Of a stretch of DNA of 47,250 bases, positions 6,906 through 44,647 are shown one piece after another. The notes beneath the pieces are model-generated. The model ran no database searches and was not told where the DNA came from. It was given only the letters and a program-made list of their open reading frames with translations. The number at the start of each line of letters is the position of its first letter. Within the stretch, counting starts at the first letter, position 1. The DNA is from a virus, in UHGV virus genome UHGV-1363746; one strand, given 5' to 3'. The position numbers and the translations under genes are program-made.

Positions 6906-7133
6906 TCAACCGTTACTGGTTGAACTATAAACCAACGCAGATATAAGTTCGTCAGCCTTTTCACGACCTGCAACCTCCGCTTCAAGCGCCAGTGAACACA
7001 TGGCGGTTTCCACATACTTAATGGTATCTTCGCGAACGTTAAGGATTTCCATAACCTCGCGAACTTCCTTCTGGTATCTCGCTGCTATTTCTTTGTATTG
7101 CATTTCCACATCACCTTTTCCGTTGTGGTACAA
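6906..7133 (-). CDS. hypothetical protein; first gene of the leftward small-gene operon
   Basis: Likely start at MQYKEIA (7103) with RBS AAAAGGTGA. Confidence 0.4.
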   Translation of the reverse strand: MYHNGKGDVEMQYKEIAARYQKEVREVMEILNVREDTIKYVETAMCSLALEAEVAGREKADELISALVYSSTSNG

Positions 7134-7172
7134 TCTACGTCAATAAGTATTGACTAAATGATGTAGATTGGT
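7131..7172. promoter_or_regulatory. divergent control region with nested inverted repeats
   Basis: caATCTACGTCAATAAGTATTGACtaaatgaTGTAGATTGg contains GTCAATA-AG-TATTGAC and ATCTAC...GTAGAT symmetry. TGTAGATTG is the -10 block of the phage early-promoter consensus. The gene 7203 follows. Confidence 0.45.
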
Positions 7173-7202
7173 CAACAATAATTTTCGAAAGGAGTAGTAA
7201 AT

Positions 7203-7403
7203 ATGCCAAGACCACGACGCGAGCCGATGGACATTATCACCAGCATTGTGGAGAAGCGTCAGCCGCTGACACTCCGTGATGTTCGCTACTTTGCCCGTTG
7301 CTATGTTGCGCTGGCTGATATGCCAAAGGATGAGATGTACCAGATGATTCGCGAGAATTTTAACGTTGACGAAAACAACAAGGTTACATTGAGAGGTGAG
7401 TGA
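7203..7403 (+). CDS. hypothetical protein
   Basis: 66 aa with RBS AAAGGAG. Confidence 0.5.
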   Translation: MPRPRREPMDIITSIVEKRQPLTLRDVRYFARCYVALADMPKDEMYQMIRENFNVDENNKVTLRGE

Positions 7404-8032
7404 TGAGTAAATGCAAGAAAGCATGGAAATACCTGAAAGGCAGCGAGAGGGATTTTGCAGGGGCGCATGCTGGAGCTACGCATAAGTATGTGCATAAGGA
7501 ATTAGGCCATCCTATCTATACCGCCAACCCAGAAATCATTAAAGAAGTGCTATTTAACCTGGTTGCAGTGCGCGAGCCAATCACCGAATGCACATTTCAA
7601 GATGGCGTAGTGTTTGACGCGCCAATTGGCATGCCTCTTAATGAATTTAAATGTCGCCAGCAATCACTGAATGCCAACGATTCCGATATGCGCCTCAACG
7701 GAATTCCTGTCGGCGAATTTTCAGCCAAAGCGGATGTCGAAGTGGTCAAATACGACCCGACGAAACTTGACATCGAATCGCTGGTCACTGAGCGTGGCAA
7801 TCGTTACGGTAAATTCGCTGATGGCGCTAAAATCATGCGCTCACTAAAAGCCGTGATGCACAACACTGACGGCTGGTCACGATTAACCGACAGCCAACGC
7901 GAAGCGCTGGATATGATTCAACACAAAATCGGTCGCATCCTGAATGGCGACCCGGCATACGATGATAACTGGAAAGATATCGCTGGTTACTCAAAACTTA
8001 TCGCAGATGAATTAAATGGAGAAATCAAATAA
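7400..8032 (+). CDS. hypothetical protein
   Basis: 210 aa. The conserved-looking C-terminal helical region begins ERGNRYGKFADGAKIMRSLKAV. Confidence 0.5.
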   Translation: MMSKCKKAWKYLKGSERDFAGAHAGATHKYVHKELGHPIYTANPEIIKEVLFNLVAVREPITECTFQDGVVFDAPIGMPLNEFKCRQQSLNANDSDMRLNGIPVGEFSAKADVEVVKYDPTKLDIESLVTERGNRYGKFADGAKIMRSLKAVMHNTDGWSRLTDSQREALDMIQHKIGRILNGDPAYDDNWKDIAGYSKLIADELNGEIK

Positions 8033-8247
8033 TGGCAGATTGCAAATTACATTTGTCTGGTCATTTTGAGTGCAACGGATTCGCATGCAAAATGTCGACA
8101 AAGCACATCTCAATCGAGATGGCTGGAGATGGCGTTAAAGTTGAATATTCTGCTGGGGTGTTTTCCCCATCAGAAATTCAGCAAGCAATCGAACTTATCA
8201 CCAAGGTAAATAAAATCGTCAGTAAAGGCGGAATGGAGAAATTTTAA
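8032..8247 (+). CDS. hypothetical protein
   Basis: 71 aa, ATGA-coupled to its neighbour. Confidence 0.45.
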   Translation: MADCKLHLSGHFECNGFACKMSTKHISIEMAGDGVKVEYSAGVFSPSEIQQAIELITKVNKIVSKGGMEKF

Positions 8248-8555
8248 TGGCATTCACAGATATTACCATCGCGCAACGAAACGCGAACTACACCAATATT
8301 GCTGACACATCCGCACAACTGGTATCACTGAATAGCGACGGCAGCGCAGTGCTGAAAATCGGCACAGAAACAGCGCAATTCATCGTGCAGAATCTGTCGC
8401 AGGCAAACGCAAAGCAGGTGCTGATTAGCACTGGTAGCGTTTTGTTTTTGGCTGGCAATTATAATGCGCCAAATCTTGAGTGTTCACTGGTGCGCATCGT
8501 TGAAGTTATGACCGAGGAACCAGCTGATGAACCAGCAACATCAACAGCAGAGTGA
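8247..8555 (+). CDS. hypothetical protein
   Basis: 102 aa, ATGA-coupled to its neighbour. Confidence 0.45.
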   Translation: MAFTDITIAQRNANYTNIADTSAQLVSLNSDGSAVLKIGTETAQFIVQNLSQANAKQVLISTGSVLFLAGNYNAPNLECSLVRIVEVMTEEPADEPATSTAE

Positions 8556-8676
8556 GCCGTCAGCCTACATCGTTACGGATAATCGTGGTCGCCGCTATCT
8601 GGTGTTTTCTGGTAGCGTTGAGCATCGGAATGCAATTATGTTTGGCTATGAAATGAAACCACTATACGAATGAGGT

Positions 8677-8937
8677 GTGAAAATGTCTTTAAGCTTTGGT
8701 GAGGCCTTGAAGGAGATGGAAATTGGATGCAAGGTCGCAAGGAGCGGGTGGAATGGAAAGGGCATGTTCCTGTTTATGATAGCAGGAGGGGCATGGGATT
8801 TTGAGTGCGACATTGATGGGGTTGACGGGCTTGATACGCTACCTTTTATCTGCATGAAAACGGCTGACGGTAAGCTGGTGCCATGGCTGGCAAGTCAAAC
8901 CGATATGAACGCAAGCGACTGGATGGTTATTGGTTGA
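8677..8937 (+). CDS. DUF2829-family protein (Tad2-like; candidate anti-Thoeris sponge)
   Basis: GWNGKGMFLF...FICMKTADGKLVPWLASQTDMNASDWMVIG matches the DUF2829 signature. RBS AATGAGGTG. Confidence 0.55.
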   Translation: MKMSLSFGEALKEMEIGCKVARSGWNGKGMFLFMIAGGAWDFECDIDGVDGLDTLPFICMKTADGKLVPWLASQTDMNASDWMVIG

Positions 8938-8939
8938 CA

Positions 8940-8968
8940 GTAAAGCCCCATCACGGGGCTTTTTTATT
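8940..8968. terminator. bidirectional rho-independent terminator
   Basis: aaagccccatcacggggcttttttat, the same stem as the terminator at 461-490. Confidence 0.6.
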
Positions 8969-9209
8969 GAAAGTTGTCCTGATACCATTCCTGCCAATCG
9001 TAAATAGTCATCTTCCTTTTGGTGGCGCACTCCGTATTCTGGTTTTCTATAACAATGCTCTCATCGCTGTTTTTCGGTGCCACTTTCGATAATTCGCACA
9101 CCTCCCCCAGCATTTCTGCTGACGGCTGAGTCTGCGTCGAGAGCTGACTGGCGCAACCAGATATAGTTATCATCAAAAGTGCAAAGGGTACGATTCGGGT
9201 CAGAGACAT
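8964..9209 (-). CDS. Rz1-like outer-membrane spanin lipoprotein, partly embedded in Rz
   Basis: Signal peptide with lipobox ITISGC. Starts inside the Rz gene in another frame. RBS GGTGA. Confidence 0.5.
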   Translation of the reverse strand: MSLTRIVPFALLMITISGCASQLSTQTQPSAEMLGEVCELSKVAPKNSDESIVIENQNTECATKRKMTIYDWQEWYQDNFQ

Positions 9210-9450
9210 ATTTCACCACGTCGCGATAAATAGTTTTATATTTAGTTTCGGTCACCACGCGCACCTGTTGGGATTGCGCTGTTGACTTTTCCTGTTTGTT
9301 CTCTGCGTTCTGTTTGCGCTTGGCGGCATCAAGATTGACCTTATCACTATGCGCATACCATCCCTTCAGGTAGCCAGCGCCAAATGATAGCGAGCCAATA
9401 GCAATACCGGTCAATAGCGGGATTATAATTAATTTAGCTTTTGCCATCAT
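9061..9450 (-). CDS. Rz-like inner-membrane spanin
   Basis: N-terminal transmembrane segment followed by a charged periplasmic coiled coil. Located downstream of the endolysin. Confidence 0.5.
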   Translation of the reverse strand: MMAKAKLIIIPLLTGIAIGSLSFGAGYLKGWYAHSDKVNLDAAKRKQNAENKQEKSTAQSQQVRVVTETKYKTIYRDVVKYVSDPNRTLCTFDDNYIWLRQSALDADSAVSRNAGGGVRIIESGTEKQR

Positions 9451-9670
9451 CGCGCAGCCTCCGGTTTTCCTTCCTCATGCCGTGCATTTTTCCGAGAATA
9501 CCAACCAGCATGATGGAGTAGCTCACACCTTTGACCACGATTGGCGGTAGCGCCGCTTTCAGGTCGTCCGGCATCATTACCCACACATGCATCATTGCGT
9601 CAGGCCACAGCTGCAACAGCGAGCAGAATGAAATCCACGCGCCGAGCAGCCAGTTGCTTAGCTTTTTCAT
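9434..9670 (-). CDS. putative holin/pinholin-like two-TM protein
   Basis: 78 aa with two hydrophobic segments and a basic C-terminus. Sits between the endolysin and the spanin. Confidence 0.35.
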   Translation of the reverse strand: MKKLSNWLLGAWISFCSLLQLWPDAMMHVWVMMPDDLKAALPPIVVKGVSYSIMLVGILGKMHGMRKENRRLRDDGKS

Positions 9671-10131
9671 GCCACAACTCCACCGGCATTCTTATATACC
9701 TGAATCAGCTTATCCAGTTTCTGCTCATGCTGACCATAACCAGCACCCGGCAATGAAGCCCAGCGGGAGCGGCATTTATGGATAGCATCAGCAATGCGAC
9801 CAGCCTCAATGTCTGCGGTGGCTTTGCATTCGCGGATTAGCTGCATTGCAATGGCGTCCTGCGATGCTGGGGAGAAGTCAGGTAAACGCAATTGTTTTTT
9901 GTATGCGTCATAAAACTTAGCCAGCACCTGATAGCGCCCGGCGGCGGTGGATTTGATGCCCAGCTTTTGCAGGCTAATCAGCTTGCGTGGGTGGTCTGAA
10001 TAGTCAGTAAATAGCGAGCCACCAACAATCACATCATAGCCATGGTCATTGGTTTTTTGCCGCCCGTTATCAGTCCCCTCGCTGTACGCCAGCATATCCA
10101 GAAATGCCTTCATGTTTTTGCTAATAGCCAT
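9667..10131 (-). CDS. endolysin, lambda R-type lytic transglycosylase
   Basis: KAFLDMLAYSEGTDNGRQKT..HGYDVIVGG.LFTDYSDHPRK...AGRYQ...WASLPGAGYGQ is near-colinear with lambda R. Start at MAISKNMKAF. Confidence 0.85.
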   Translation of the reverse strand: MAISKNMKAFLDMLAYSEGTDNGRQKTNDHGYDVIVGGSLFTDYSDHPRKLISLQKLGIKSTAAGRYQVLAKFYDAYKKQLRLPDFSPASQDAIAMQLIRECKATADIEAGRIADAIHKCRSRWASLPGAGYGQHEQKLDKLIQVYKNAGGVVA

Positions 10132-10399
10132 ACCAGTAAACCTCTTTTTCAGCTTTGCGTTTTGCTTTATTGTCGGTCTTCTCGCCCCACACGATGAAAT
10201 GCGCGACGACACATGAGAAGCAGCGAAGGTTGTGTTTCTTCAGAAGCGTTGATTTGCGGAACGAGTCAATGCCGATGTCGGCGGCAAGGCTTGTCAGCGC
10301 ATCAAACTGATTCTGTGTTGTCTCAGTGGTGATGTAAGGCGATATATCTACAGCATCGTTAATTCCAAACGTCTCCATGCCGCGTTGCGATAGTTTCAT
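10121..10399 (-). pseudogene. truncated GH24 (T4/P22-type) lysozyme remnant
   Basis: QNQFDALTSLAADIG..FRKSTLLKK.NL matches the C-terminal half of P22 gp19/T4 e-type lysozymes. The N-terminal catalytic region is missing. It keeps its own RBS (GGGAGG) and ATG. Confidence 0.5.
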
Positions 10400-10442
10400 T
10401 CTGCCTCCCGTTCAAATAATGATTAATTCTATCACAATGGTA

Positions 10443-10482
10443 TTGACGTAGATTGAGTGGTAGTGCATAGTATCTACATCAA
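10443..10482. promoter_or_regulatory. early promoter (TTGACG-N17/18-cATAGTAT) embedded in an inverted repeat
   Basis: The palindrome TTGACGTAGAT-N18-ATCTACATCAA lies immediately upstream of the GAGGTGA leader of gene 10504. Confidence 0.5.
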
Positions 10483-10503
10483 ACGGTGAATGAGGTGATG
10501 AAG

Positions 10504-10818
10504 ATGAAAACTAACAATAGAGAAGAGTTAATTAAACTACTGGAGTTAGCGAAAGAAAAAGGCGCATTGAAGTCAATTGATGATTTGAGCTTGCGCGATA
10601 TACGCATAGAGACCCCTGATGGCGCAAGATTTCGTATTGAGTGGTATTGCAATCTATGCACACTGAAGAACGCTGGTTTTTCAATGTGGTTTGACTGCAT
10701 TGAATTTACGCAGACTCACCCATGCTTCCTGAATGAGGTCAGGTTGTCATATCAAGGGGTGGTAACTGGCGTTATCGGTAAGCCACTCGGCAATTTAACA
10801 AAATCATTCGAGGTGTAA
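10504..10818 (+). CDS. hypothetical protein
   Basis: Leader AATGAGGTGATGAAGATG. 104 aa. Confidence 0.5.
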   Translation: MKTNNREELIKLLELAKEKGALKSIDDLSLRDIRIETPDGARFRIEWYCNLCTLKNAGFSMWFDCIEFTQTHPCFLNEVRLSYQGVVTGVIGKPLGNLTKSFEV

Positions 10819-10820
10819 TT

Positions 10821-10964: not shown

Positions 10965-10972
10965 GGTTGGTG

Positions 10973-12022: not shown

Positions 12023-12050
12023 AAAGCCCTCAGTTAGAGGGCTTTTTGTT
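12023..12050. terminator. rho-independent terminator closing the plus-strand island
   Basis: aaagccctcagttagagggctttttgtt. Confidence 0.55.
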
Positions 12051-14388: not shown

Positions 14389-14418
14389 AATCCCATCACG
14401 TTGGATGGGATTATAGCA
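14389..14418 (-). promoter_or_regulatory. terminator hairpin overlapped by an extended -10 promoter (TGcTATAAT) directly upstream of portal
   Basis: Minus strand reads TGCTATAAT then the stem cccatccaacgtgatggg then TTTTTT. The -10 overlaps the 3' arm of the stem. Confidence 0.4.
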
Positions 14419-15863: not shown

Positions 15864-16070
15864 TCACCCTCTCAAAAAATCATTCTTGCAGCAGATACCC
15901 TTATATCCACGCTTCTCTTGCAGGTTAACGAAAACATCATCCAGAACGCGCAGCAGGAAATCCTCGTCGATGTCATACCGACGACAAATCACCTCATCAG
16001 GCACGCCAGCCCGCGCCAGCGAATAAACCTGCTCTTTTTCCTCCTGTGTGAATCCTGCATAGCTGCGCAT
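15864..16070 (-). CDS. small HTH-like putative regulator
   Basis: 68 aa. EQVYSLARAGVPDEVICRRYDID is helix-turn-helix-like. First gene after the divergent promoters. Confidence 0.35.
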   Translation of the reverse strand: MRSYAGFTQEEKEQVYSLARAGVPDEVICRRYDIDEDFLLRVLDDVFVNLQEKRGYKGICCKNDFLRG

Positions 16071-16100
16071 AGTGATATCTCCGTTAAACCTGATGTAGAT

Positions 16101-16129
16101 ATACTATGCGCTCGATGTAGATTGGTCAA
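16101..16129 (-). promoter_or_regulatory. leftward early promoter TTGACC-N17-TAGTAT
   Basis: Minus strand reads TTGACCaatctacatcgagcgcaTAGTAT, upstream of the 68-aa gene. Confidence 0.5.
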
Positions 16130-16164: not shown

Positions 16165-16193
16165 TTGACGTAGATATGGTGGTGGTGTAGATT
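16165..16193 (+). promoter_or_regulatory. rightward early promoter TTGACG-N17-TAGATT
   Basis: TTGACGtagatatggtggtggtgTAGATT. Extra GTAGAT copies occur at 16091-16125. Confidence 0.6.
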
Positions 16194-16228
16194 GGACTCA
16201 GTTGGAAATGCTTATGCGAGGTGATGGG

Positions 16229-16405
16229 ATGTTTGAAGCATACAAATCAAAAATGACTGGCAGCACATATCTCTTTGCACCAGCTAATGGGCTGATTTTT
16301 GTTCATCGTGATAAAGATAACATTGAAGCCACGAGAATGACAAAAGACGACATAGATATGTATGTCAGAAATGGAGTTATGGAAGAAGCGGAGTGTCCAG
16401 CATGA
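16229..16405 (+). CDS. hypothetical protein
   Basis: RBS GAGGTGA. Start at MFEAYKS. Confidence 0.45.
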   Translation: MFEAYKSKMTGSTYLFAPANGLIFVHRDKDNIEATRMTKDDIDMYVRNGVMEEAECPA

Positions 16406-16584
16406 GCCATACAAGACCAAGAGTTAACAAAAAAGTAAGAGAAGAGGCAATAGAGCACTTTAAAAGCCACCATGGAAATCACTCACACGAGGTGATTGTT
16501 GGTATAGATGTAGAGAAGATGAAAGAAACCGCAAAACACTACAAAGGAAGGGTTAATCTTGCGGATTATGGAATAGCGGAATAA
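16402..16584 (+). CDS. hypothetical His-rich small protein
   Basis: Overlaps the upstream gene. Confidence 0.4.
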   Translation: MSHTRPRVNKKVREEAIEHFKSHHGNHSHEVIVGIDVEKMKETAKHYKGRVNLADYGIAE

Positions 16585-16588
16585 GCAT

Positions 16589-16618
16589 AAGCCCTCGAAT
16601 GAGGGCTTTATTTTTATC
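16589..16618. terminator. rho-independent terminator
   Basis: aagccctcgaatgagggctttatttttat. Overlaps the TerL stop codon. Confidence 0.55.
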
Positions 16619-18625: not shown

Positions 18626-18671
18626 TCTGTTTTCGTCTTTTCGTATTTCGATATCGTTAGTTTAACACAGA

Positions 18672-18706
18672 TAAAAAAGAACCCGCACAAGGCGGGTCAA
18701 AGGTTG
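18672..18706 (-). terminator. rho-independent terminator ending the leftward early operon before the terminase genes
   Basis: Minus stem acccgccttgtgcgggt followed by TCTTTTTTAT. Confidence 0.55.
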
Positions 18707-21578: not shown

Positions 21579-21607
21579 AATCTACATCAGTTGCAATTCT
21601 ACGTCAA
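21579..21607 (-). promoter_or_regulatory. leftward early promoter TTGACG-N17-TAGATT
   Basis: Minus strand reads TTGACGtagaattgcaactgatgTAGATT. Confidence 0.55.
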
Positions 21608-21619: not shown

Positions 21620-21990
21620 AAAAACGTGCTCGTGGGGTAAATTTTTGCTCGTGGGGCAGGTCGTGGGGAAGGTCGGTTGCCCCACGATTTTCATCGCAAA
21701 TAATTGATTTTAATGTTTTTATTTTTCGTGGGTAAAAAGGGGCAGATTTCACACCCATCCCCTTATAAATATATTCAAATAATCCATTTGTTAATATTAT
21801 GTTAATTACTATCTATAATATGAATAATAATATTACCCATTAACCCAAATAATAATAATTTTATTATATTACATATACTTAGAGTAAGGTTTCGTGGGGA
21901 AGGTTGGTTGCCCCACGCCTTACCCACGTTACCCACGCGAGTCGTATTTGATGTTGCATGATTCAATACTTATGATATGATTCAATCATA
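21620..21990. other. putative origin of replication: iterons and hairpins flanking an AT-rich core
   Basis: At least 9 copies of CGTGGG(G) or its complement. Two 27-nt hairpins, cgtggggaaggtYggttgccccacg, at 21660-21687 and 21892-21918 bracket a core of about 130 bp with more than 80% AT (21760-21890). Two direct ATGATTCAAT repeats at 21958-21986. Confidence 0.5.
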
Positions 21991-24397: not shown

Positions 24398-24427
24398 CAA
24401 AAACCCTCCGATTGGAGGGTTTCTTTT
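24398..24427. terminator. bidirectional rho-independent terminator
   Basis: aaaaaccctccgattggagggtttctttt, between convergent genes. Confidence 0.6.
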
Positions 24428-25382: not shown

Positions 25383-25417
25383 TTGACCCTTGATTGTTGG
25401 TGTAGATTGAGTATAAG
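25383..25417 (+). promoter_or_regulatory. rightward early promoter upstream of the helicase
   Basis: TTGACCcTTGATTgttggTGTAGATTgagTATAAG. Downstream leader TGACGTAGAAACATCAACAAAGG. Confidence 0.45.
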
Positions 25418-25454
25418 CTAACTGACGTAGAAACATCAACAAAGGTTAGTTGCT

Positions 25455-27369: not shown

Positions 27370-27810
27370 GTGAAAAAGCGATTCAAGCAGCATGAGCTGA
27401 GTGACAAGGTATTAATTTTTGATGATGGTTACCGTGGCGAGTGTCCGCATGAGGATTCAGACTTGATAGCGTTTAAGTGGTGGATGGATTACCGGTTTCC
27501 TGATGTTCTGTGGTTCCATCCGTCTCAGGAGACTAAAAGCAACTCAGTGCAGCATCTGGCATCGCGCGCAAGGAAAGGTGTCAGGTCAGGGGTATCTGAT
27601 GTGATAATCCTGACTCCTGGTGGTGCGTGGCATAAAGCGACGATAGAGTTGAAGCGACACGATTCAACGCTTAGCAAATGGCAACCAGGACAGATACCGT
27701 TTCTCAACGATAGCGCCAGCGCTGGTGCATTCTCTGCGGTGGCGTGTGGACTCGACCAGATAAAGATTGCAGTGTTGACGTATTTCGGCTTGCCTTTTGA
27801 TGTGGATTGA
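27370..27810 (+). CDS. VRR-NUC domain nuclease
   Basis: PD-(D/E)XK core: SDVIIL...ATIELK. Commonly partnered with phage SF2 helicases. Confidence 0.6.
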   Translation: MKKRFKQHELSDKVLIFDDGYRGECPHEDSDLIAFKWWMDYRFPDVLWFHPSQETKSNSVQHLASRARKGVRSGVSDVIILTPGGAWHKATIELKRHDSTLSKWQPGQIPFLNDSASAGAFSAVACGLDQIKIAVLTYFGLPFDVD

Positions 27811-27818
27811 TGTAGATT
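27790..27818 (+). promoter_or_regulatory. rightward promoter TTGCCT-N17-TAGATT
   Basis: TTGCCTtttgatgtggattgatgTAGATT followed by the GAGGTGATGAAGATG leader. Confidence 0.45.
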
Positions 27819-27849
27819 CAATTGTACAATAACTAGTGAGGTGATGAAG

Positions 27850-30810: not shown

Positions 30811-30836
30811 TAAACCCCGCCGAAGCGGGGTTTTAC
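30811..30836. terminator. bidirectional rho-independent terminator
   Basis: aaaccccgccgaagcggggtttt. Confidence 0.6.
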
Positions 30837-32825: not shown

Positions 32826-35250
32826 TATAATAAATGCTCCTTTGTGAATTTGATGTATATTGTATCACGATGACTGGATGGCATATTCGTACATATCATC
32901 GCTGTACTCACTCATGGTCAGCGTGGTAGTTCCATCGCTTCCCGGATTCTTTTGACTTACAACCCACAACGTTGTATCCAGTTCTTTCTCCGTGCTCAGA
33001 ACGTAACGAGATTCAGATTGCACATTAGTGCCATCCCAGATATTTAGCTGAAAATCAGATGGCAGGTTGCAGGTGAATGTATGCAATCCGGTTACTGTTG
33101 CTGGCAATCTGTCTGACACGCTGCCGTCAGAACTGGTAATCACAACGTAGAGATTATCATCTGCCGTGAGTTGCTCGCTGGTTGTGAATACGTTTCCGTT
33201 GCGCGCTTCAATCACGCCAGTCTGTTGAACGTCATCATACATATCGACGACCTGAATCATGTCACCTACGTTAACCCATTCGCCATCTGCCAGCGCTTTA
33301 ATCTCCATGCTTCGGCGGGAATAAATCAAACGACGACACTCAAGGATTGCACGATCAACAGCCTGGTAGCGATTGCGAACATAAAGCATGTCGAATTTCT
33401 TCGCTTTAGTTGGCTCGCCTTCTACAATTCCGCTGTCGGTAATTCGATAGTAAACGTTGGCCTGCTTATTCGTTGTTGGGTCGCGATATTCGACGTTAAC
33501 GCCATCGTAAGTACCTGGAAGACTGATGTCATAACTCAGCTTATAACCGTCGTTCTGCGTATTTCTGGTGTTGAATACAGTTGCCGGATATTCTCTCTTT
33601 TCATCACGAGAGAAGCTCATCACGCCATCATCCCAGAATGCAGTAACACGGGCTGCATCGCAGATTGTTTGCAGACGCTCTCCGATGCTCTTATCTTCAT
33701 CGTCAAAAGTGTAATCGAAATAACCAAGACGCTCATCAGGAAGACTGTCTGCAATTTCATACAGCTTCACGATATCAATCGTGTTTTCTGGATTGCCAGC
33801 GGTAATCAGCCAGTTATGCAGAACAGCATCAGCAAAGCTACGGGAAGGTGCAAGTGTGTAGCGCACCGTGCCAGTATCGCGGTTGTATCCGATGGTGTGG
33901 CGCGTGATTAACGCATTATATTTCCTGTCACGGCTTCCAGTTGCGTTTTCTGTTGCGCGAACGACAACCTTAACCACGGTGTCATCTGGATATGAAACGT
34001 TAGTGCGCGTGACTATTGAATGGACTTCATCAAGCTGAATTATTGATTGTTGGGTGCTGTTATTGGTCCTTGTAAACTGGACTGCGTATCTGGCATTCCC
34101 ATATGATGGCGTTATTTTCCTTGTGTAATAGTAGGTATCTGCTCCGCCAGCTACAAAAGTATATGTGGTTGATTGGTATGAACCTGCAATCTGCACGTTA
34201 TCATCATCCACCGCCCACCACTCAGCTTTAACAATAGCACCCTGATCTTCACCAAATTGAGCAACGAAATGGAACCACAGCTGATCACCTTCTATCGGTG
34301 AGAAATACGGCCCTGAAACAAGAGGTTGGTTATCAGTAAGGTTGAAGTAAGTGTTATTGATGGTTACGCCATTCAAGGATGATATCGGTGCACCTGAGTA
34401 GTTGATGTTATTAATTATAAATGTGTACCAGTAATCAACAGGTGGAATATTCCCATCATCTGTTTCTGATGCTGATACAAGACTACCTGATAAGGTGACG
34501 TTTTCAGTGACCGACGCGCCACCTCCAAGCGCGTAAGTGATGTTTAGTTTGAAAACCACATCATGAGGCACAACCAGATCAACGAAGTAATCGAAAGCGG
34601 AATTTTTTGGTATTTTTACAGCTATCTGTCCACCAGCAAAGTCAGTGCTGGTCACCGATGTTGTTGTGGCTGACTCAATGACAACAGAATTAGTGTCGTT
34701 TGGCCCATACAGTTCCTGACCATCAACGTCATCAAATGCGTAAGGCTCAAGAACAACCGGGATAACTTCTCCCGGCTGATAAATGGTGTAACTCGCGCCA
34801 GCCAGAGAGCCGAGGTTTGATTCTGAATACCGCACTGAAGACACGTCATATTTTCCGAGGCCAAAGTTCATGAGCTCGGTGACATATTTAATATTGTTGA
34901 TGCATTCGAATAATGATTCCTGAAGCAAGTCAGGGAATGCGCGAATCTGCCCGAAATTATCAGGTCGCGCCTCGCCATTGCGCGCAATGTTTGTCTGTGC
35001 TTTCAGGCTGGTGTTAGGTGATGTTTTCGAGCTGGTATCCGTTTTTGGCGTTGATACTTTCGGTGTAAGGAAAGAGAAAATCTTCGTTACTGGTTTCAGT
35101 ATCGCACCGATAAGGTCGCCGATTGCGCCGGATGGCTGGCAATAAACGTTGACCACATCGCCATCTCGCAGGCAGAAGGAAAGTTCATCATCTTCACCGA
35201 GCACTCTGCCATTTACCGCAATTGAAATGCTGGCAGGAAGATTTGATTTA

Positions 35251-39764: not shown

Positions 39765-39773
39765 TTGATTATA
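39765..39773 (-). promoter_or_regulatory. extended -10 promoter TGATATAAT for the tail operon
   Basis: Minus strand reads TGATATAAT about 20 nt upstream of the chaperone-like ORF. Confidence 0.45.
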
Positions 39774-39787
39774 TCATCTCGGTGATG

Positions 39788-39816
39788 TTGACACCTGCCG
39801 GGCTGTGATGTAGATT
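39788..39816 (+). promoter_or_regulatory. rightward promoter TTGACA-N17-TAGATT
   Basis: TTGACAcctgccgggctgtgatgTAGATT followed by the AATGAGGTGAG leader. Confidence 0.55.
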
Positions 39817-39851: not shown

Positions 39852-40046
39852 ATGGACGTTGTTATTTTGTTGTTTTTCGTTGGTTTGGTGATATTTGCGT
39901 ACCTTCTACCATCTTTTGTAGCCCTGCAACGCAAGCACGCAAACACGACTGCAATCTGCGTACTGAATATTCTTGTCGGATGGAGTTTTATTGGCTGGGT
40001 TGCGGCGCTTGTTTGGGCATTAGTTAAGAGTGACGATAAAAAATGA
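39852..40046 (+). CDS. superinfection immunity protein (Imm_superinfect family)
   Basis: LPSFVALQRKHANTTAICVLNILVGWSFIGWVAALVWAL. Two TM helices. Confidence 0.55.
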   Translation: MDVVILLFFVGLVIFAYLLPSFVALQRKHANTTAICVLNILVGWSFIGWVAALVWALVKSDDKK

Positions 40047-40186
40047 ACGAACAAACAAAAGCTGACCTGATTTTCTACACTGATTTGTATGTCGATGCAG
40101 GTTACGACTACGAAGAAGCGGAACGCATGGCGAAAGACCTGCTTCGTGTGATTGGTGTGATTTTTGATGAGGATAAGGTGATATGA
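40043..40186 (+). CDS. 47-aa acidic hypothetical protein
   Basis: ATGA-coupled on both sides. Product MNEQTKADLIFYTDLYVDAGYDYEEAERMAKDLLRVIGVIFDEDKVI. Confidence 0.3.
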   Translation: MNEQTKADLIFYTDLYVDAGYDYEEAERMAKDLLRVIGVIFDEDKVI

Positions 40187-40539
40187 AAAATTATGAAGAA
40201 ATGAGTGATTCACAAATAGCGCAAAAGGTTTTCTTTTTTGTGAGTGGTAGTCTTTGCCCCAAAGGAGGGTTGGCTCATATCAGTTCAGATGGCTTTTTCT
40301 TTTTTGATGACAAGAACATTAAACGAAAGTTTGACCCATGCAACAACCCAGCTGATGCGTGGCCTATCATTGACGAAAACAACATCACAATTATTAACGA
40401 CCATCCGTCGATGCGATTGGCTGTTAACGACGCAGCGGGTTACTACAATGGATTTAGTGGCATCATTGCCAGTTTTGATGAAAACGGATTTCGCGCCGCC
40501 ATGATCGTCTTCCTTAAAATGAATGAGGATAAATTATGA
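40183..40539 (+). CDS. DUF2591-like phage protein
   Basis: FDPCNNPADAWPIIDENNI and RAAMIVFL resemble enterobacterial prophage DUF2591 proteins. Confidence 0.4.
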   Translation: MKNYEEMSDSQIAQKVFFFVSGSLCPKGGLAHISSDGFFFFDDKNIKRKFDPCNNPADAWPIIDENNITIINDHPSMRLAVNDAAGYYNGFSGIIASFDENGFRAAMIVFLKMNEDKL

Positions 40540-40739
40540 GCCAGTGGATTAAATGCAGTGAGCGAATGCCTGAAGAAGGCAAGCCAGTTTTGGTTGTCAG
40601 TAGCATTGGTGGCGCGGTACAGAACAATGTGTACGAGTGGGATGGCAGAACTTGGTGTGATTTCAGGGATGACTACAACGAACTCAGTATGGATGTTTTT
40701 ACTCACTGGATGCCACTACCAGAACCACCACAAGAATAA
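40536..40739 (+). CDS. DUF551 phage protein
   Basis: MSQWIKCSERMPEEGKPVLV...FTHWMPLPEPP. Confidence 0.65.
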   Translation: MSQWIKCSERMPEEGKPVLVVSSIGGAVQNNVYEWDGRTWCDFRDDYNELSMDVFTHWMPLPEPPQE

Positions 40740-40742
40740 AAC

Positions 40743-40770
40743 AAAGCCCCTTTCGGGGCTTTTCTTTATC
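40743..40770. terminator. bidirectional rho-independent terminator
   Basis: aaagcccctttcggggcttttctttat. Confidence 0.6.
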
Positions 40771-41485: not shown

Positions 41486-41520
41486 TTCGATCTCCGAATT
41501 GTGTTAGCTGCTAACGTGGT

Positions 41521-41529
41521 GATTATATC
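41521..41529 (-). promoter_or_regulatory. extended -10 promoter TGATATAAT for the major tail gene
   Basis: Minus strand reads TGATATAAT about 35 nt upstream of the major tail protein ATG. Same geometry as at 39765. Confidence 0.45.
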
Positions 41530-41536
41530 ACAGGTG

Positions 41537-41565
41537 TTGACAGTGATTATTTTGTGGTGTAGATT
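41537..41565 (+). promoter_or_regulatory. rightward promoter TTGACA-N17-TAGATT driving a non-coding transcript
   Basis: TTGACAgtgattattttgtggtgTAGATT. Confidence 0.55.
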
Positions 41566-41571
41566 GTATTT

Positions 41572-42218
41572 CAGATGGTTTTCGTGAGCGACTTTGCGGA
41601 CTTTTTAGAAACTGACCACAAAGATAAATGCAAACGATGATGTTGTTCTGATGGCGGCGTAATAGCCTGTAAGTCAGCAAGGTCTTCCGATTCCTTGTAA
41701 ACAAATTCGGCGCAGTGGCCCGCTGTGATTAATAATGGGCACCTACCAATGAGAGCATTGTGATTGATCGTCGTTCTTGCGCGCAAAGTCTGTTCGAAGA
41801 TAGTGCTCTCTTTAGTGGGTAACAACGGGCATGCCGCCTTAGTAAATCCCGCACAGGTGCAGCGAATAATCCGGTAATGTCGTTGCCGTAAGCCACACGA
41901 AACGTGGCACGCAACAGGTAAGAGCATTGAATGTTGACTGGCTTAGCATACCAAATCCAACATTGTTGCAGCAGTGCTCTTTCCGTTGTGGTAATGCGGC
42001 TATGCGCACGCGGCAAGATGAAACGCACTCCATTTGAATGTTGCCTGCTGGAGTCATCGACCAGCAATCTGGAGGCACCAGAGCCACAACACTTAATATC
42101 CAGCATTATCGCAATCATATGTAGGGGTATGTATGGGTTACGGGGCTGGATATTAAGAAAGCACGCTGGCAATGCTTAAACCAGCAATAAGGCCGCCAAG
42201 TGCGGCTTTATTTATTTC
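41572..42218 (+). ncRNA. candidate ~650-nt structured non-coding RNA (novel, unnamed)
   Basis: Bounded by a consensus promoter and an intrinsic terminator. No ORF with an RBS and no protein-like ORF on either strand. Two tandem ~170-nt modules (41746-41915 and 41916-42085) share AGAGCATTG...AGTGCTCT stems and GGTAA..CGG..ATGC blocks, with compensatory internal hairpins. Confidence 0.4.
42188..42218 (+). terminator. rho-independent terminator
   Basis: ggccgccaagtgcggc followed by tttatttattt. Confidence 0.55.
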
Positions 42219-42586
42219 ACAACCCGCAAAAGCAACTCATGCACTGGTCTTTTTTCTTCCGTCAGCATTGGTCTTCCCAGTGGAGCCTGCAACTGGATGT
42301 AGTTAACGCATGAATCAATCGGGTGAGTTTTGATGTATTCGATAATCTCATTGGCCTTCGCATCAACATCAGACACGTTGCATTGACCACGTTTACCAAC
42401 AACGTACAGCGAGAAATAGAAGTCACCGCCGAGGCCATCCATCACCTGCGTGCCTCCATTGGATTGCAGGACAATAAATTGCTCGTTGCCATCTCCGGTG
42501 TCATTCCAGAACTGTAACTGCGAAGTCCAGCCATCATATAATCCGGCATCCTGAAGGTAAGCATCAACCAGCTCAAGCATATTCAT
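42212..42586 (-). CDS. tail completion/terminator-like connector protein (putative)
   Basis: 124 aa, last of four small coupled neck genes. Confidence 0.35.
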   Translation of the reverse strand: MNMLELVDAYLQDAGLYDGWTSQLQFWNDTGDGNEQFIVLQSNGGTQVMDGLGGDFYFSLYVVGKRGQCNVSDVDAKANEIIEYIKTHPIDSCVNYIQLQAPLGRPMLTEEKRPVHELLLRVVK

Positions 42587-42984
42587 TAGAGCGTCATCTC
42601 CTTCTTAATTACACTATCAACCAGGTCTTTTGTGCGCTGCGCCGCCTTGGTCAGGAATTGCGGCTCACCACCGGGACTCCAGTATGTACCGTTACCATTG
42701 CTGCGCGGCTTACCTGTGAGTTTGCCACTGGCGTTATGAACGTAAAGCGCATATTTTGCAGAGTAGCCAACCTTGCCAGTGATCCGCGTTCCGCTGACTT
42801 CCACAGTATCAAACTGACTGTTAATCAGTGTCGATGTATCAATTGGCGTCAACGTGGCTGATTCGGTGCGGATGATGTATGTCGCAGATTTCAGAGCGCG
42901 CACGGCTTTCGTGGCGATTATCTCATCCACAATCTGCGATGTTCTTTCTACGGCCTGCCGGACGCCTCTTAATTTCGCTGGCAT
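42586..42984 (-). CDS. neck/tail component (HK97 gp10-like position, putative)
   Basis: 132 aa, ATGA-coupled. Confidence 0.35.
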   Translation of the reverse strand: MPAKLRGVRQAVERTSQIVDEIIATKAVRALKSATYIIRTESATLTPIDTSTLINSQFDTVEVSGTRITGKVGYSAKYALYVHNASGKLTGKPRSNGNGTYWSPGGEPQFLTKAAQRTKDLVDSVIKKEMTL

Positions 42985-43331
42985 TACGTCACCAGTGCAA
43001 AGTCAGGAGGCTCAGCTCTATTGAACGTATTGCCATAATTAATCACATTCAGAATCTGGTTTGCGCCAGCCGCCAGCGGGTCAACTTCTGCCACCGTGCC
43101 AATCATGATGTAATCACCTACCTTAGCGCCAGTGTATTCTGTCCAGAAGGTATTTTTCTGCACAATCTCATTACCTTTCGCGTCTGTCGATACGTCATCG
43201 TTAAAGCCATAGTCGCACATGATGCTTACTGGCGCGTCAAAAGTCGGCTTTCCGTACTTGTCATTGCCGCTTTTGTGCCAGATTGTGCATGGTTGCGTGT
43301 AGGAAAAACGAGCCAGTGAAGTCATTTGCAC
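42984..43331 (-). CDS. head closure / head-tail joining protein (putative)
   Basis: 115 aa, ATGA-coupled. Confidence 0.35.
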   Translation of the reverse strand: MQMTSLARFSYTQPCTIWHKSGNDKYGKPTFDAPVSIMCDYGFNDDVSTDAKGNEIVQKNTFWTEYTGAKVGDYIMIGTVAEVDPLAAGANQILNVINYGNTFNRAEPPDFALVT

Positions 43332-43750
43332 TTACCCCCACGCACAACCGCAAACCACGGTTTACCGCTTCCGTCAGGGTCTTCCACCAAATCGCCAGTG
43401 CATCCGGCTGTATCCAGCAGTTTCATCTGATTGTACAGCGCCACCCACGGTTTGCTGCCATACGCGAATGATTGTGATGCTCCAGACGGTGCGCTCTGAC
43501 TGGTAACGTAGCGACCGGCGGTATTAGCGCCAATCAGGATGGAAGCCCACAGCATGATCGCATTTTGTCGGCATTCATCATTTGGGTAGCTCAGTTCAAG
43601 GCATTCACTGATTGACGCCACAAGACACAGAATACCAGACGCATCTGTTGTGGTGATAGTCATTCCACGGGATGCCATCTGGTTTACTAATTCTTCAGGT
43701 GTTGGTGCTGCCATTTCTCTTTGACTCCCGTACTTTCCACCACATCTCAA
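43322..43750 (-). CDS. head-tail adaptor-like protein (putative)
   Basis: 142 aa. The real start may be MAAPTPEEL. Confidence 0.35.
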   Translation of the reverse strand: MRCGGKYGSQREMAAPTPEELVNQMASRGMTITTTDASGILCLVASISECLELSYPNDECRQNAIMLWASILIGANTAGRYVTSQSAPSGASQSFAYGSKPWVALYNQMKLLDTAGCTGDLVEDPDGSGKPWFAVVRGGKCK

Positions 43751-43979
43751 AAAGGTTTTTTATCACCAGAGACAATGCGCCAAGGATTGACGCCACTGCC
43801 GCCCATTCAGTTAATGATTGTGGAATCATGGCTTCAAAATAAGACTGCGCGACAGGTGTTTGCTCTGCAACTTTCAGGCCAATGCCAGTGCCAATAGAAG
43901 CATACCCAGCCTTATCAATCACCTGCCCCGTCGTCCCGCTTATAACTTGCTCTGCGGCCTGTCTTAGTGTTTCGTTCAT
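43695..43979 (-). CDS. hypothetical protein with C-terminal TM helix
   Basis: 94-aa ORF. Confidence 0.35.
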   Translation of the reverse strand: MNETLRQAAEQVISGTTGQVIDKAGYASIGTGIGLKVAEQTPVAQSYFEAMIPQSLTEWAAVASILGALSLVIKNLFEMWWKVRESKRNGSTNT

Positions 43980-44011
43980 TGCGAGTCTCGCTGATAATAT
44001 GTTTCCAGCAC

Positions 44012-44452
44012 TTATAGATTTGAATCAGCGAAAAAACAATGGCGACCACGCCAAGAATAATGTCCAATTTCGCCGCCCCATTTAAAAGTGATGGAAAGGA
44101 TGAACAGATGGATGCCGATAATAATAAATGCGTACTGCGCATGAAGCGGCGTTTCTACAGGCGTGATAAATTCCCATACGAATGACTCTATCGCTACCAG
44201 CCATTCGTAAAGGCTCATCGTCAGCACGCAGAGCGCCATCTTTGTACTTTTGCGCAGCGCAATAGCCGGAAACAACCAGACCATAGACTGTGCAAGGTAA
44301 TACAGATATTCGGCGGGAAATGAATCAACAAGCACCCATCCAAGATACACAGACATCACCATTGCCGGAATGAACACCAGAAACGCAACCATGCCTGTGC
44401 AGGCAAAACCCAGCACATACATGATCATGATGGCAATATCTGCGCCGAACAT
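44012..44452 (-). CDS. predicted 4-TM membrane protein
   Basis: 146 aa, strongly hydrophobic. Confidence 0.45.
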   Translation of the reverse strand: MFGADIAIMIMYVLGFACTGMVAFLVFIPAMVMSVYLGWVLVDSFPAEYLYYLAQSMVWLFPAIALRKSTKMALCVLTMSLYEWLVAIESFVWEFITPVETPLHAQYAFIIIGIHLFILSITFKWGGEIGHYSWRGRHCFFADSNL

Positions 44453-44571
44453 TATTTCTTACCGCGCGATGGTGAACGAGTGGAACCGTTTGGCTTCACT
44501 GTGCCAGTTTTGCCGCCAGTTTTGGTATTGCCAGTGGCGCGTGAGCGAGACGGCGAATTGGTTGAACCCAT
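44452..44571 (-). CDS. 39-aa highly basic Ser/Thr/Gly-rich peptide
   Basis: AGGAG RBS 6 nt upstream. Product MGSTNSPSRSRATGNTKTGGKTGTVKPNGSTRSPSRGKK. TAATG overlap with the next gene. Confidence 0.4.
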   Translation of the reverse strand: MGSTNSPSRSRATGNTKTGGKTGTVKPNGSTRSPSRGKK

Positions 44572-44601
44572 GTTTAAATCTCCTGTTGTTTGATTAGCAT
44601 G

Positions 44602-44610
44602 ATTTTAGCA
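44602..44610 (-). promoter_or_regulatory. extended -10 promoter TGCTAAAAT for the connector block
   Basis: Minus strand reads TGCTAAAAT about 30 nt upstream of the 39-aa ORF. Confidence 0.35.
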
Positions 44611-44618
44611 TATTCCTG

Positions 44619-44647
44619 TTGACGTAGATTGATGCTGCGTTTATAGT
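44619..44647 (+). promoter_or_regulatory. rightward promoter TTGACG-N17-TATAGT
   Basis: TTGACGtagattgatgctgcgttTATAGT followed by the leader TGATGTAGAAACAACAATAAATG and a GAGGTGA RBS. Confidence 0.55.

Follow-up and report, generated by a model that had tools for sequence, protein, structure and literature searches.

Each of the predicted early sigma-70-type promoters of phage UHGV-1363746, about a dozen in number, was found to bear one to three copies of an asymmetric element of 11-13 bp, TGAYGTAGATTG(A), lying over the -35, the spacer, the -10 or the start. The earlier note had described the repeat as a fixed -35/N17/-10 cassette; the repeated unit is instead this 12-mer, which varies in position and orientation. 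Judging from the sequence, we see about an even chance that these are sigma-70 early promoters bearing a putative operator for a regulator.

The window studied, 47,250 nucleotides long, is the complete 47 kb genome of a virulent, Skate-like (Deseoctovirus-related) siphophage and consists of about 20 transcription units. Early, replication and accessory units start with a host sigma-70-type promoter (-35 TTGAC) and end in an intrinsic terminator, in most cases bidirectional, whereas the virion and lysis (late) blocks have a separate promoter class, a -35-less extended -10 (TGnTAnAAT). We infer the early (E) and late (L) labels from gene content alone.

Early promoters and the shared element

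The exact 10-mer TGRYGTAGAW matched 16 times against 0.56 expected, a count reached in 0 of 100 shuffles, and 15 of the 16 matches were fully intergenic (P about 3e-17), although intergenic DNA makes up just 6.6% of the window. All eight divergent junctions and one internal promoter have the element, with at least two copies, spaced 17-31 bp, in seven of nine promoter regions. The signal comes from this shared word and not from generic sigma-70 matches, which were not enriched in the window (30 vs 30.6 expected; 34 vs 32.4); strict TTGACG/A-N17-TAGATT gave 4 matches against 0.55 expected (16165+, 39788+, 41537+ and 21607-). The element contains a -35-like TTGAC and a -10-like TAGATT, and these are the actual hexamers in five and five cases, respectively, so that part of its conservation is just promoter function.

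Copies occur in both orientations: over the -35 (10444, 16166, 21597-, 44620), over the -10 (16183, 21580-, 27808, 39806, 41555), within the spacer (7159, 25398, 16113), at +1 (25423, 44651, 7133-) and, inverted, immediately 3′ of the -10 (10472-, 16091). The minus-strand units at 7175-, 16129- and 21607- and the primase promoter are also headed by it. The early promoter regions are as follows.

7105-7179, both strands: divergent junction, two plus promoters overlapping one minus promoter; element at 7133-7142 (-) and 7159-7168 (+)
10443-10484, plus: E promoter TTGACG-N17-CATAGT; element at the -35 (10444-10453, +) and inverted after the -10 (10472-10481, -)
16088-16129, minus: E promoter TTGACC-N17-TAGTAT of the small-gene unit 16070 to 14433; both element copies inverted, one within the spacer and one immediately past the -10 (16113-16122 and 16091-16100 on the plus strand)
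16165-16608, plus: indel island; its E promoter, TTGACG-N17-TAGATT, has the element twice in direct repeat at a 17-bp spacing; a pair of small ORFs (16229-16584) precedes the bidirectional terminator 16589-16608
21579-21607, minus: E promoter TTGACG-N17-TAGATT of the small-gene unit 21532 to 18744; element present twice as direct repeats with a 17-bp spacing
25390-25439, both strands: face-to-face promoters with overlapping -10s; the shared -10 lies between element copies 25398-25407 and 25423-25432
27790-27818, plus: internal E promoter TTGCCT-N17-TAGATT; tandem element at 27798-27806 (degenerate) and 27808-27817; Shine-Dalgarno (SD) GAGGTGATG at 27838
39788-39816, plus: E promoter TTGACA-N17-TAGATT, element at the -10; drives the Imm/NinX/DUF551 island 39852-40739
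41537-41565, plus: E promoter TTGACA-N17-TAGATT, element at the -10
44619-44687, plus: E promoter TTGACG-N17-TATAGT; element at the -35 (44620-44629) and +1 (44651-44660); conserved leader; SD GAGGTGATG at 44677; promoter of the ParB-like/RusA unit, which runs over the sequence end to position 456

Nine of the ten promoter sites listed in the earlier note are present as described, including the -10-only site at 7162 (TGTAGATT). The tenth, 25383, had been mis-registered, its TAGATT lying just 14 nt past TTGACC; a better promoter is TTGATT (25390)-N16-TATAAG (25417), which leads to the DEAD helicase operon. Three promoters had been missed, namely the TG-extended plus promoter TCCACA-N18-TG-TACAAT (7105-7134), which accompanies the plus promoter TTGACT-N18-AACAAT (7150-7179), and the minus promoters TTGACC-N18-AATACT (7175-7146) and TTGATG-N18-TATACT (25439-25410), the latter leading to primase. 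The claim of a conserved leader after each promoter was overstated, TGAYGTAGAAACAnCAAyAA occurring only at 25423 and 44651. An extended SD was likewise said to follow each promoter; GAGGTGATG (5 matches vs 0.32 expected) follows four promoters, that of 10443 being at 10492, but not the others, and its fifth match is at gene 29270. Paralogous promoter and leader sub-families could be recognized in the leaders of 25423/44651 and of 39788/21607 and in the SD regions of 10443/27790.

Late promoters, terminators and unit layout

The late blocks have a second promoter class, missed when a single family was proposed. An extended -10 TGnTAnAAT with no -35 lies 26-36 nt upstream of the first gene in seven of eight late blocks; a count over the 120 nt 5′ of each late block and of the primase gene gave 7 such sites against 0.098 expected. 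At four junctions these promoters stand back to back with element-bearing E promoters, with 9-14 bp between.

4575-4583, minus: L promoter TGTTATAAT, extended -10, 31 nt 5′ of the capsid block
10426-10434, minus: L promoter TGATAGAAT, 5′ of the lysis block; back to back with E 10443, 11 bp between hexamers
14389-14418, minus: L promoter TGCTATAAT (14418-14410), located after the early small genes and before the portal gene, adjoining terminator hairpin 14412-14389
18659-18698, minus: terminator 18698-18680, then weaker extended -10 TGTTAAACT (18667-18659), 5′ of a small terminase candidate and TerL
32859-32867, minus: L promoter TGATACAAT, 5′ of the tailspike gene, then degenerate inverted element ATACATCAAAT
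39768-39776, minus: L promoter TGATATAAT, 5′ of the tail block; back to back with E 39788
41522-41530, minus: L promoter TGATATAAT, 5′ of the major tail gene; back to back with E 41537
44602-44610, minus: L promoter TGCTAAAAT, 5′ of the head-tail block; back to back with E 44619

The eight hairpin terminators listed previously were all found, most of them bidirectional.

462-484: terminator closing the unit begun at 44619; hairpin identical to 8942-8962
8942-8962: terminator at a convergent junction
12023-12045: bidirectional terminator
16589-16608: bidirectional terminator, end of the indel island
24399-24424: bidirectional terminator
30812-30833: terminator at a convergent junction
40743-40762: bidirectional terminator
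42192-42206: terminator at a convergent junction

The early promoters that head these terminator-bounded units are plausible sigma-70 promoters, and the gene layout bears out the reported alternation of islands with minus-strand virion and lysis blocks. The islands contain core genes of replication and recombination, encoding two helicases, exonuclease VIII, a recombinase, SSB, a ParB-like protein and RusA; accessory genes include Tad2-like (8683-8937), Imm (39852-40046), NinX and DUF551.

It was also noticed that an unannotated RNA, driven by promoter 41537, contains a tmRNA-like tag ORF common to more than 700 phage records.

41572-42100, plus: conserved non-coding RNA, the payload of promoter 41537

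The transcript contains no convincing ORF; the tag ORF (41630-41665) reads ANDDVVLMAA followed by two stops, segments 41648-41677 and 41678-41697 form hairpins, and the acceptor strands of a 3′ tRNA-like remnant are 41985-41991 and 42084-42090.

Conservation and gene flux among relatives

Gene order, strand switches and the junction element are shared by DS8, STGO-35-1, IME207, Segz_1 and the distant Roufvirus pYD38-A. In both UHGV-1363746 and pYD38-A, a Vibrio phage, GACGTAGA from the element is the top-enriched 8-mer, at orthologous sites, so that the alternating architecture is ancestral; layout and element go back to the ancestor of the whole Skate/Rouf phage family and not to recent insertions. 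The logo built from 159 distinct sites gives a length of 11-13 bp. From UHGV-1363746 to pYD38-A, GTAGAT 3′ of TTGAC is invariant while the remaining spacer is variable, and the L promoters are conserved as far as pYD38-A. Across 6 genomes, TTGACGTAGATTGA at promoter 10443 shows no variation, and the 7105-7179 junction keeps its -10 AATACT and both element copies. Orthologous promoters can retain two copies with one flipped, as in Segz_1 (the 7150 junction) and pYD38-A (the 10443 homologue). The promoter pair 25390-25439 is kept in STGO-35-1 and IME207; the 44619 cassette is near-identical in pYD38-A and occurs once per record in 205 phage records, with a varying first gene. The element also persists at most orthologous promoter regions of seszw, a relative with a reduced genome of 36,991 bp that is still viable.

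It is the element-driven units that make up the hyperplastic part of the genome; they are hot spots of gene flux, which bears out part of the earlier interpretation. Gene conservation over the five relatives is 0-0.8 in these units vs 0.73-1.0 in the late units. Homology between phages stops precisely at the 3′ boundary of the promoter/SD cassette, with breakpoints at the start codon just 3′ of cassettes 10443, 27790 and 44619. DS8 and IME207 lack the whole island 16165-16608, and in STGO-35-1 and Segz_1 it has different genes.

Possible role of the element

The earlier note attributed the alternation to plus-strand islands inserted singly as morons, each with its own promoter copy. This origin is very unlikely and largely refuted by synteny, the junctions, strands and element being the same in five relatives including pYD38-A; essential replication genes are among the island contents, and minus-strand units are also element-driven. 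What stands is that 16165-16608, which has a promoter and a terminator of its own, is a true indel unit and that accessory genes (Tad2-like, Imm, NinX, DUF551) reside in islands. Like morons as defined by Juhala and Hendrix for lambdoid and HK97-like phages, the units are autonomous promoter-gene-terminator sets among virion blocks, one of them present or absent among relatives, but most are ancestral and syntenic family-wide and several are essential; since the phage is virulent, the moron trait of expression from a prophage is inapplicable. It is also quite unlikely that the cassettes are kept chiefly as exchange substrates of the T4 type, with regulation secondary, their identical short promoter, SD and terminator stretches letting phages of the family swap the intervening genes. 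The start-codon breakpoints, the low gene conservation in element-driven units and the identical hairpins 462 and 8942 speak for such exchange, as does the mosaicism for which the family is known (PMC11769527). T4-type promoter-early stem-loop (PeSL) cassettes (PMC2839356, PMC4122927) similarly place near-identical sigma-70-like early promoters and efficient stem-loop terminators around small, variable genes of mostly unknown function, in hyperplastic regions with indel or replacement junctions between related phages at the cassettes. In PeSLs, however, terminator and promoter form a single composite motif of about 50-70 bp (PMC2839356), whereas in UHGV-1363746 they stand at opposite unit ends, with terminators at convergent junctions, the units include core replication genes, and the conserved core is a multi-copy, multi-orientation 12-mer. 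A core of 11-13 bp is rather short to support homologous exchange, which would also leave the multiple copies per promoter and their overlap with polymerase contacts unexplained.

Alternatively, no dedicated factor need be involved: the element would be the family's favoured strong sigma-70 sequence (TTGAC as -35, TAGATT as -10), with the copy at +1 to +12, which resembles a -10, serving as a sigma-70-dependent pause site and uniformity kept by duplication and gene conversion among promoter copies. Ten copies do place TTGAC or TAGATT in exact -35 or -10 register with a 17-bp spacer, the sub-families are clearly paralogous, and conversion could be driven by the phage's own exonuclease VIII, recombinase and RusA. 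We nevertheless consider this rather unlikely, because inverted and spacer copies cannot serve as hexamers at their own promoter, non-hexamer bases are invariant across phages whose core proteins are just 50-90% identical, and conversion within a genome leaves identity across subfamilies and hosts unexplained. A conserved host transcription factor, exploited by the phage to sense, for example, host physiology, might bind the element, which is identical in phages of Salmonella, Escherichia, Klebsiella, Vibrio and Aeromonas, as would fit a factor found throughout the gamma-proteobacteria. This is scarcely probable; to our knowledge the element matches no E. coli regulator consensus, and a phage-encoded factor conserved in all members accounts equally for the host range.

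The preferred reading, a putative operator, has parallels in global operator networks such as KorB/KorA of IncP plasmids and the gp71 "stoperators" of mycobacteriophage L5, in which a short site at many promoters of a small replicon gives coordinate control. The gp71 sites are asymmetric 13-mers, as the 12-mer here is asymmetric; L5, however, is temperate, and its sites, in a single orientation, also lie within operons. UHGV-1363746 encodes a ParB/KorB-type helix-turn-helix (HTH) protein, but KorB sites are palindromic. At the E/L junctions, a site over the early -35 beside a -35-less promoter on the opposite strand recalls phi29 p4, lambda CI at divergent promoters and the MotA middle promoters of T4, and one bound protein could thus repress one promoter and activate the other. 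The element centre lies at about -30 from the late start at 10443 and 44619, like a MotA box, but at about -45 and -50 at two other junctions, a variation that sets this geometry apart from those three systems; no MotA/AsiA domain was found among about 50 proteins scanned against Pfam. Candidate binders are the following.

45875-46684, plus: ParB/KorB-like HTH protein with HTH_ParB and KorB matches, aligning to Spo0J
15864-16070, minus: 68-aa three-helix protein, first gene of promoter 16129(-)

The ParB-like protein is 80% identical in pYD38-A. The seszw mutant retains both candidates and has no homologue of a MarR-like gene. Against the ParB-like candidate, ParB/KorB proteins usually bind palindromes, and phage ep3 has a ParB homologue 50% identical, yet its genome is not enriched in the element. 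The 68-aa protein gave no significant fold match, only weak HTH folds (best E 0.58).

Under the operator reading, a DNA-binding protein, most likely phage-encoded and early, would sit on the sites and occlude RNA polymerase, and their occupancy would switch off or autoregulate all early units jointly. At the four E/L junctions, binding could in addition relieve competition or replace the missing -35 contact, and the outcome would be a genome-wide early-to-late switch.

Promoter classes and the shared element of a Skate-like genome

By sequence similarity the window belongs with the virulent, Skate-like siphophages that infect enterobacteria; its nearest relatives by megablast, Shigella phage DS8 (Deseoctovirus), Salmonella phages PJN025 and STGO-35-1, IME207 and Segz_1, align to 47-64% of a 20 kb query at about 88-91% identity. 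Since the entire 44.6 kb DS8 genome can be matched to the window gene by gene in the same order, and the window opens inside the RusA gene, the 47,250 bases represent a complete genome. The Skate-like genera have no assigned family; 'Skateroufviridae' was proposed in one paper, which emphasises mosaicism and in which Roufvirus (Vibrio phage pYD38-A and Aeromonas phage pIS4-A) forms the distant branch (PMC11769527). E. coli members of the group are now present in the BASEL collection. No phage RNA polymerase gene was evident among the window genes.

Twelve sigma-70-type sites were identified, each having 9-10 of the 12 hexamer positions, a spacing of 16-18 bp and a location 25-80 nt ahead of a first gene with a Shine-Dalgarno (SD) sequence. 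Nine of the ten promoter-like sites listed in the earlier note were as described there; the one at 25383 had been mis-registered, with TAGATT only 14 nt past TTGACC, and qualifies only when moved to the better fitting TTGATT(25390)-N16-TATAAG(25417). The strict form TTGACR-N17-TAGATT had 4 matches versus 0.55 expected, and generic sigma-70 matches were not commoner in the window than in shuffled sequence, so that the hexamers by themselves are no proof. The conserved leader said to follow each promoter was present at two promoters only (25423 and 44651). The extended SD GAGGTGATG, which corresponds over eight bases to the 16S 3′ end, was indeed enriched (5 matches versus 0.32 expected), with four of the five downstream of listed promoters, and does not follow each of them as had been proposed. 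TGTAGATT was considered as an extended -10 and rejected, its TG being one base out of register.

Listing of all YGTAGA contexts revealed, instead of the fixed cassette described earlier, an asymmetric element, TTGAYGTAGATTG. Its 10-mer form, TGRYGTAGAW, had 16 matches versus 0.56 expected, of which 15 were wholly intergenic in a genome with an intergenic share of 6.6% (P about 3e-17). In a logo of 159 distinct sites from the window and related genomes, constraint was strong at 11 positions, T-G-A/g-Y-G-T-A-G-A-T-T, and weaker at the S-A after them; these sites included loci from an exact 14-mer scan of IMG/VR, which gave mostly chance matches mixed with family contigs and is not informative alone. 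The element was present at all eight divergent junctions and at one internal promoter, and seven of these nine regions had two or more copies at distances of 17-31 bp. It is thus a short site found at many promoters and over RNA polymerase contact points, as in an operator network, and its placement relative to the promoter varied as follows.

Placement of element copies at the early-type promoters (minus-strand copies marked)
10444, 16166, 21597 (minus), 44620: TTGAC of the element serving as -35
16183, 21580 (minus), 27808, 39806, 41555: TAGATT of the element serving as -10
7159, 16113, 25398: element within the spacer
7133 (minus), 25423, 44651: element covering the start site
10472 (minus), 16091: element inverted directly past the -10

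Two promoter pairs were interlocked: 7150(+) and 7175(-) overlap such that the -35 of each lies over the -10 of the other and the element copies are common to both, and 25390(+) and 25439(-) stand face to face with overlapping -10s and one element copy on either side.

Promoters of the second class consist of an extended -10, TGnTAnAAT, located on the minus strand 26-36 nt ahead of the first start codon in the capsid, lysis, portal, tailspike, tail, major-tail and head-tail blocks (7 sites in the upstream windows scanned, where 0.098 would be expected); the terminase block has a weaker one, TGTTAAACT, and a -35 was absent from all these late-type promoters. Four of them lie back to back with element-bearing promoters, with 9-14 bp between. 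It was also noticed that an 18-mer, ATTTGATGTATATTGTAT (32848-32867, between the tail and tailspike genes), identical in five genomes (the window and four relatives), is composed of the late-type tailspike promoter and an inverted element copy with one mismatch. Three minus-strand units have the order element promoter, small genes without known function, late genes, and in units 16129(-) and 21607(-) a terminator (14412-14389 and 18698-18680, respectively) abuts or precedes the late-type promoter:

14389-14418, minus strand: terminator and late-type extended -10, between early small genes and the portal gene
18659-18698, minus strand: terminator, then late-type extended -10, between early small genes and the terminase genes

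As the -10 at 14418 continues into the terminator stem, late transcripts would begin within the hairpin and escape it. The eight intrinsic terminators claimed previously were all found, at convergent junctions, each a 5-11 bp hairpin followed by a T tract, and five of the eight scored on both strands. Two of the hairpins, 462-484 and 8942-8962, are identical, loop included. The terminators form sequence families, AAAGCCCC...GGGGCTTT and AAGCCCTC...GAGGGCTT, with further hairpins at 1566-1585, 40743-40762, 12023-12045 and 16589-16608, and GGGGCTTT ranks among the most enriched 8-mers.

Conservation of the layout and location of gene flux

Scanning with a position weight matrix derived from the window copies located the element at orthologous junctions in DS8, STGO-35-1, IME207, Segz_1 and pYD38-A. 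The most over-represented 8-mer found de novo, GACGTAGA, was the same in the window and in pYD38-A, two phages whose core proteins have only 40-92% identity. In aligned promoters the bases past the -35 (GTAGATTG) were invariant and the remaining spacer variable. Promoter 44619 with its leader and SD is near-identical in pYD38-A, the first gene downstream varying between phages, and its 73-bp cassette occurred as one copy per record in 205 phage records, all of the Skate/Rouf family. Two element copies are kept at orthologous promoters, one of them sometimes flipped, as in Segz_1 (7150 junction) and pYD38-A (10443 homologue). Late-type promoters are likewise kept as far as pYD38-A, some by altered yet matching sequence (TGCTAAAAT in the window versus TGATAAAAT in pYD38-A). 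Since gene order and strand switches of pYD38-A are the same as those of the window, the alternating architecture is ancestral; the proposal that recent insertion of islands had created it does not hold, because the junctions and the element are already at orthologous sites as far as this phage. Read from sequence, these results establish two sequence classes of promoter, an element on one of them, terminator-bounded units and conservation throughout the family.

Among the five relatives, genes of element-driven units were conserved in 0-80% of comparisons (typically 30-50%) versus 73-100% for genes of late units. Element-driven units carry accessory genes, including those for a Tad2-like anti-Thoeris protein, Imm, NinX and DUF551, together with core genes, those for both helicases, exonuclease VIII, recombinase, SSB, the ParB-like protein and RusA. 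The Tad2-like protein (8683-8937, plus strand, 84 aa) has a strong Thoeris anti-defence 2 domain (E 8e-25) and had no homologue in the five relatives compared. In the large gap ahead of the helicase operon (21630-21925), iteron-like repeats TCGTGGGG/CCCCACGA border an AT-rich stretch, an arrangement that makes this region a likely replication origin; a 26-nt palindromic unit, TCGTGGGGAAGGTYGGTTGCCCCACG, has two copies there, at 21661 and 21892.

A tmRNA-like RNA downstream of promoter 41537

Approximately 620 nt downstream of promoter 41537 had no credible ORF. A protein-coding reading of 41571-42179 was rejected, as similarity to pYD38-A was interrupted by repeated frame shifts and the ORF translations were not protein-like. 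The region had instead the following features.

41572-42100, plus strand: tmRNA-like RNA, with tag ORF 41630-41665 (ANDDVVLMAA and two stops)
41648-41677 and 41678-41697, plus strand: covarying hairpins
41985-41991 and 42084-42090, plus strand: acceptor-like strands

The tag has a GCA start, a hydrophobic AA-type C-terminus and its stop in the helix-5 hairpin. An invariant block, ATAAATGCAAACGA, begins the 10-codon frame, and this frame is kept in all eight aligned sequences, in which six tags, each ending in a stop, were found: ANDDVVLMAA (window), ANDDVVLMSA, ANEEMYLAVA, ANDNTFLAVA, ANDNVFLAVA and ANDDLMMVAA. The SsrA tag of E. coli is ANDENYALAA. Compensatory changes were observed in the stop-codon hairpin and the next one; hairpin cells were paired in 93% versus 29-44% with partners slid, and there were 15 double changes versus 7.3 in shuffles.

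ARAGORN called no tmRNA, the Rfam tmRNA models remained sub-threshold (13-28 bits versus cut-offs of 47-84), and direct similarity to E. coli ssrA was insignificant (score 24 versus 21 +/- 3 for shuffles). A full tRNA-like domain, formed by the 5′ and 3′ ends and with G3:U70 and T-arm, was not found in the window; relatives possess a self-contained tRNA-like domain (acceptor stem and T-arm) 3′ of the tag, which lacks G3:U70 and is degenerate in the window, and only AYO145A has G3:U70 and A73. In the latter phage, the tmRNA-like tag element is followed directly on its 3′ side by a tRNA-like unit at 1365-1443, which encodes its CCA, has G3:U70 and A73, scores 31.7 bits with the Rfam tRNA model, lacks a normal D-arm and is uncalled by ARAGORN.

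The 5′ 130-200 nt of the RNA had matches of 70-98% identity in 731 phage records of unrelated groups, including Ackermannviridae, Felixounavirus (Felix O1-like), Vi01-like phages, a Schitoviridae member and P1, and was present in 656 of 5,426 E. coli genomes, within prophages and on plasmids; the region is hardly ever annotated. In the phages examined the RNA lies inside or adjoining tRNA clusters in the same orientation; it is located between Q and the holin gene in the lambdoid prophage of E. coli 55989, and in the ban operon, past the 'dicF-like region', in P1. In the tmRNA surveys consulted, the phages listed are only mycobacteriophages, Bacillus phage G and DS6A (PMC4131195), and a form whose tag region precedes the tRNA-like domain on the 5′ side is not mentioned in the 2025 update of the tmRNA database (PMC11915505). 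Being widely shared yet unannotated, this RNA with its tmRNA-like tag merits separate study, and it may be relevant to the way in which phages handle host ribosome rescue.

Candidate regulators and a possible early-to-late switch

When about 50 small proteins were scanned against Pfam and PHROGs, only two recognisable DNA-binding candidates emerged, and the proteins scanned had no MotA or AsiA domain. A ParB/KorB-type protein (45875-46684, plus strand; HTH_ParB E 2.5e-11, KorB E 7e-6) shares 80% identity with its pYD38-A counterpart and can be aligned with Spo0J over both the N-terminal and the HTH domain. Its N-terminal domain has GQHRY in place of the arginine motif GERRY of chromosomal ParB; the protein is 99-100% identical in many Skate-like phages and kept by all genome-reduced seszw mutants listed. 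A 68-aa protein, encoded by the first gene downstream of promoter 16129(-), was modelled by AlphaFold as a three-helix bundle (pLDDT 81), with weak matches to HTH-type folds, none significant. The viable genome-reduced relative seszw_300S (36,991 bp; PMC9825161) keeps both proteins and the element at most orthologous promoter regions, and lacks a homologue of the MarR-like gene. Looking for a separate palindrome of the parS type yielded only terminators.

The variable register and orientation of the element, its multiple copies and its conservation beyond the hexamers suggest a protein-binding site, and we give about an even chance to the proposal that the element-bearing early promoters carry an operator for a candidate regulator. 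Against this stand the facts that ParB-type proteins usually bind palindromes and that Jilinvirus ep3, with a 50%-identical ParB, has no enrichment of the element, so that linking the element to the ParB-like protein through this distant homologue failed; the enriched word of ep3 itself is TGACTAC, mostly in coding sequence. KorB/KorA networks and L5 stoperators resemble the present case in having one operator at many promoters, the operator here being putative. A middle promoter of the T4 MotA/AsiA type was not matched, as just two of the eight late promoters have the element near -30 relative to their start. That the element is merely an optimal promoter whose uniformity is maintained by gene conversion would suit the copies serving as -35 or -10 and not those within spacers or past the -10, and is considerably less probable; binding of a host factor to the same sites is improbable.

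It is also rather unlikely that the cassettes are conserved chiefly as recombination substrates like the T4-type PeSL, the closest described system, with which they share hyperplastic regions and indel/replacement junctions at the motif (PMC2839356, PMC4122927). The composite terminator-promoter motif of PeSL is missing here, promoters being at divergent junctions and terminators at convergent ones, with 0.4-5 kb between them, and the only close terminator-promoter pairs (14389-14418 and 18659-18698) involve late-type promoters, unlike the early promoter of PeSL; a recombination role and regulation could nevertheless be compatible. Serial insertion of morons, as the earlier note had it, is largely refuted by synteny and is equally improbable as host-factor binding: the unit 16165-16608, wholly absent from DS8 and IME207 and replaced by other genes in STGO-35-1 and Segz_1, fits the moron definition, whereas the seven other islands are syntenic up to pYD38-A and do not.

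Returning to the operator reading, repression is the simplest action because the element overlaps polymerase contact points, and its occupancy would repress the early promoters, as early shut-off or autoregulation. An element over an early -35 beside a -35-less late promoter could permit a combined off/on switch, such as those known from phi29 p4 and lambda CI. Tentatively, the 12-mer may be the operator of a global regulator specific to the family, perhaps the ParB/KorB-type protein, which would then act on a site that is asymmetric; this regulator would effect the early-to-late switch at every strand-switch junction at once by silencing the element promoters and releasing or activating the abutting -35-less ones, with one such promoter dedicated to the tmRNA-like RNA that is also found in unrelated enterobacterial phages.

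Skate-like phages are common biocontrol and therapy candidates against Salmonella, E. coli and Klebsiella. Literature searches gave no relevant paper on their promoters or on the motif string and no start-site or RNA-seq data for the family, and on the timing of their transcription apparently nothing has been published. The promoter-class map explains the location of gene flux in Skate-like genomes, and the cassettes offer compact, portable promoter, SD and terminator parts. Together, the two-class promoter map and the single shared cis element form a directly testable regulatory model, the main interest of which is that regulation in an unstudied phage family is made into a concrete, testable map.
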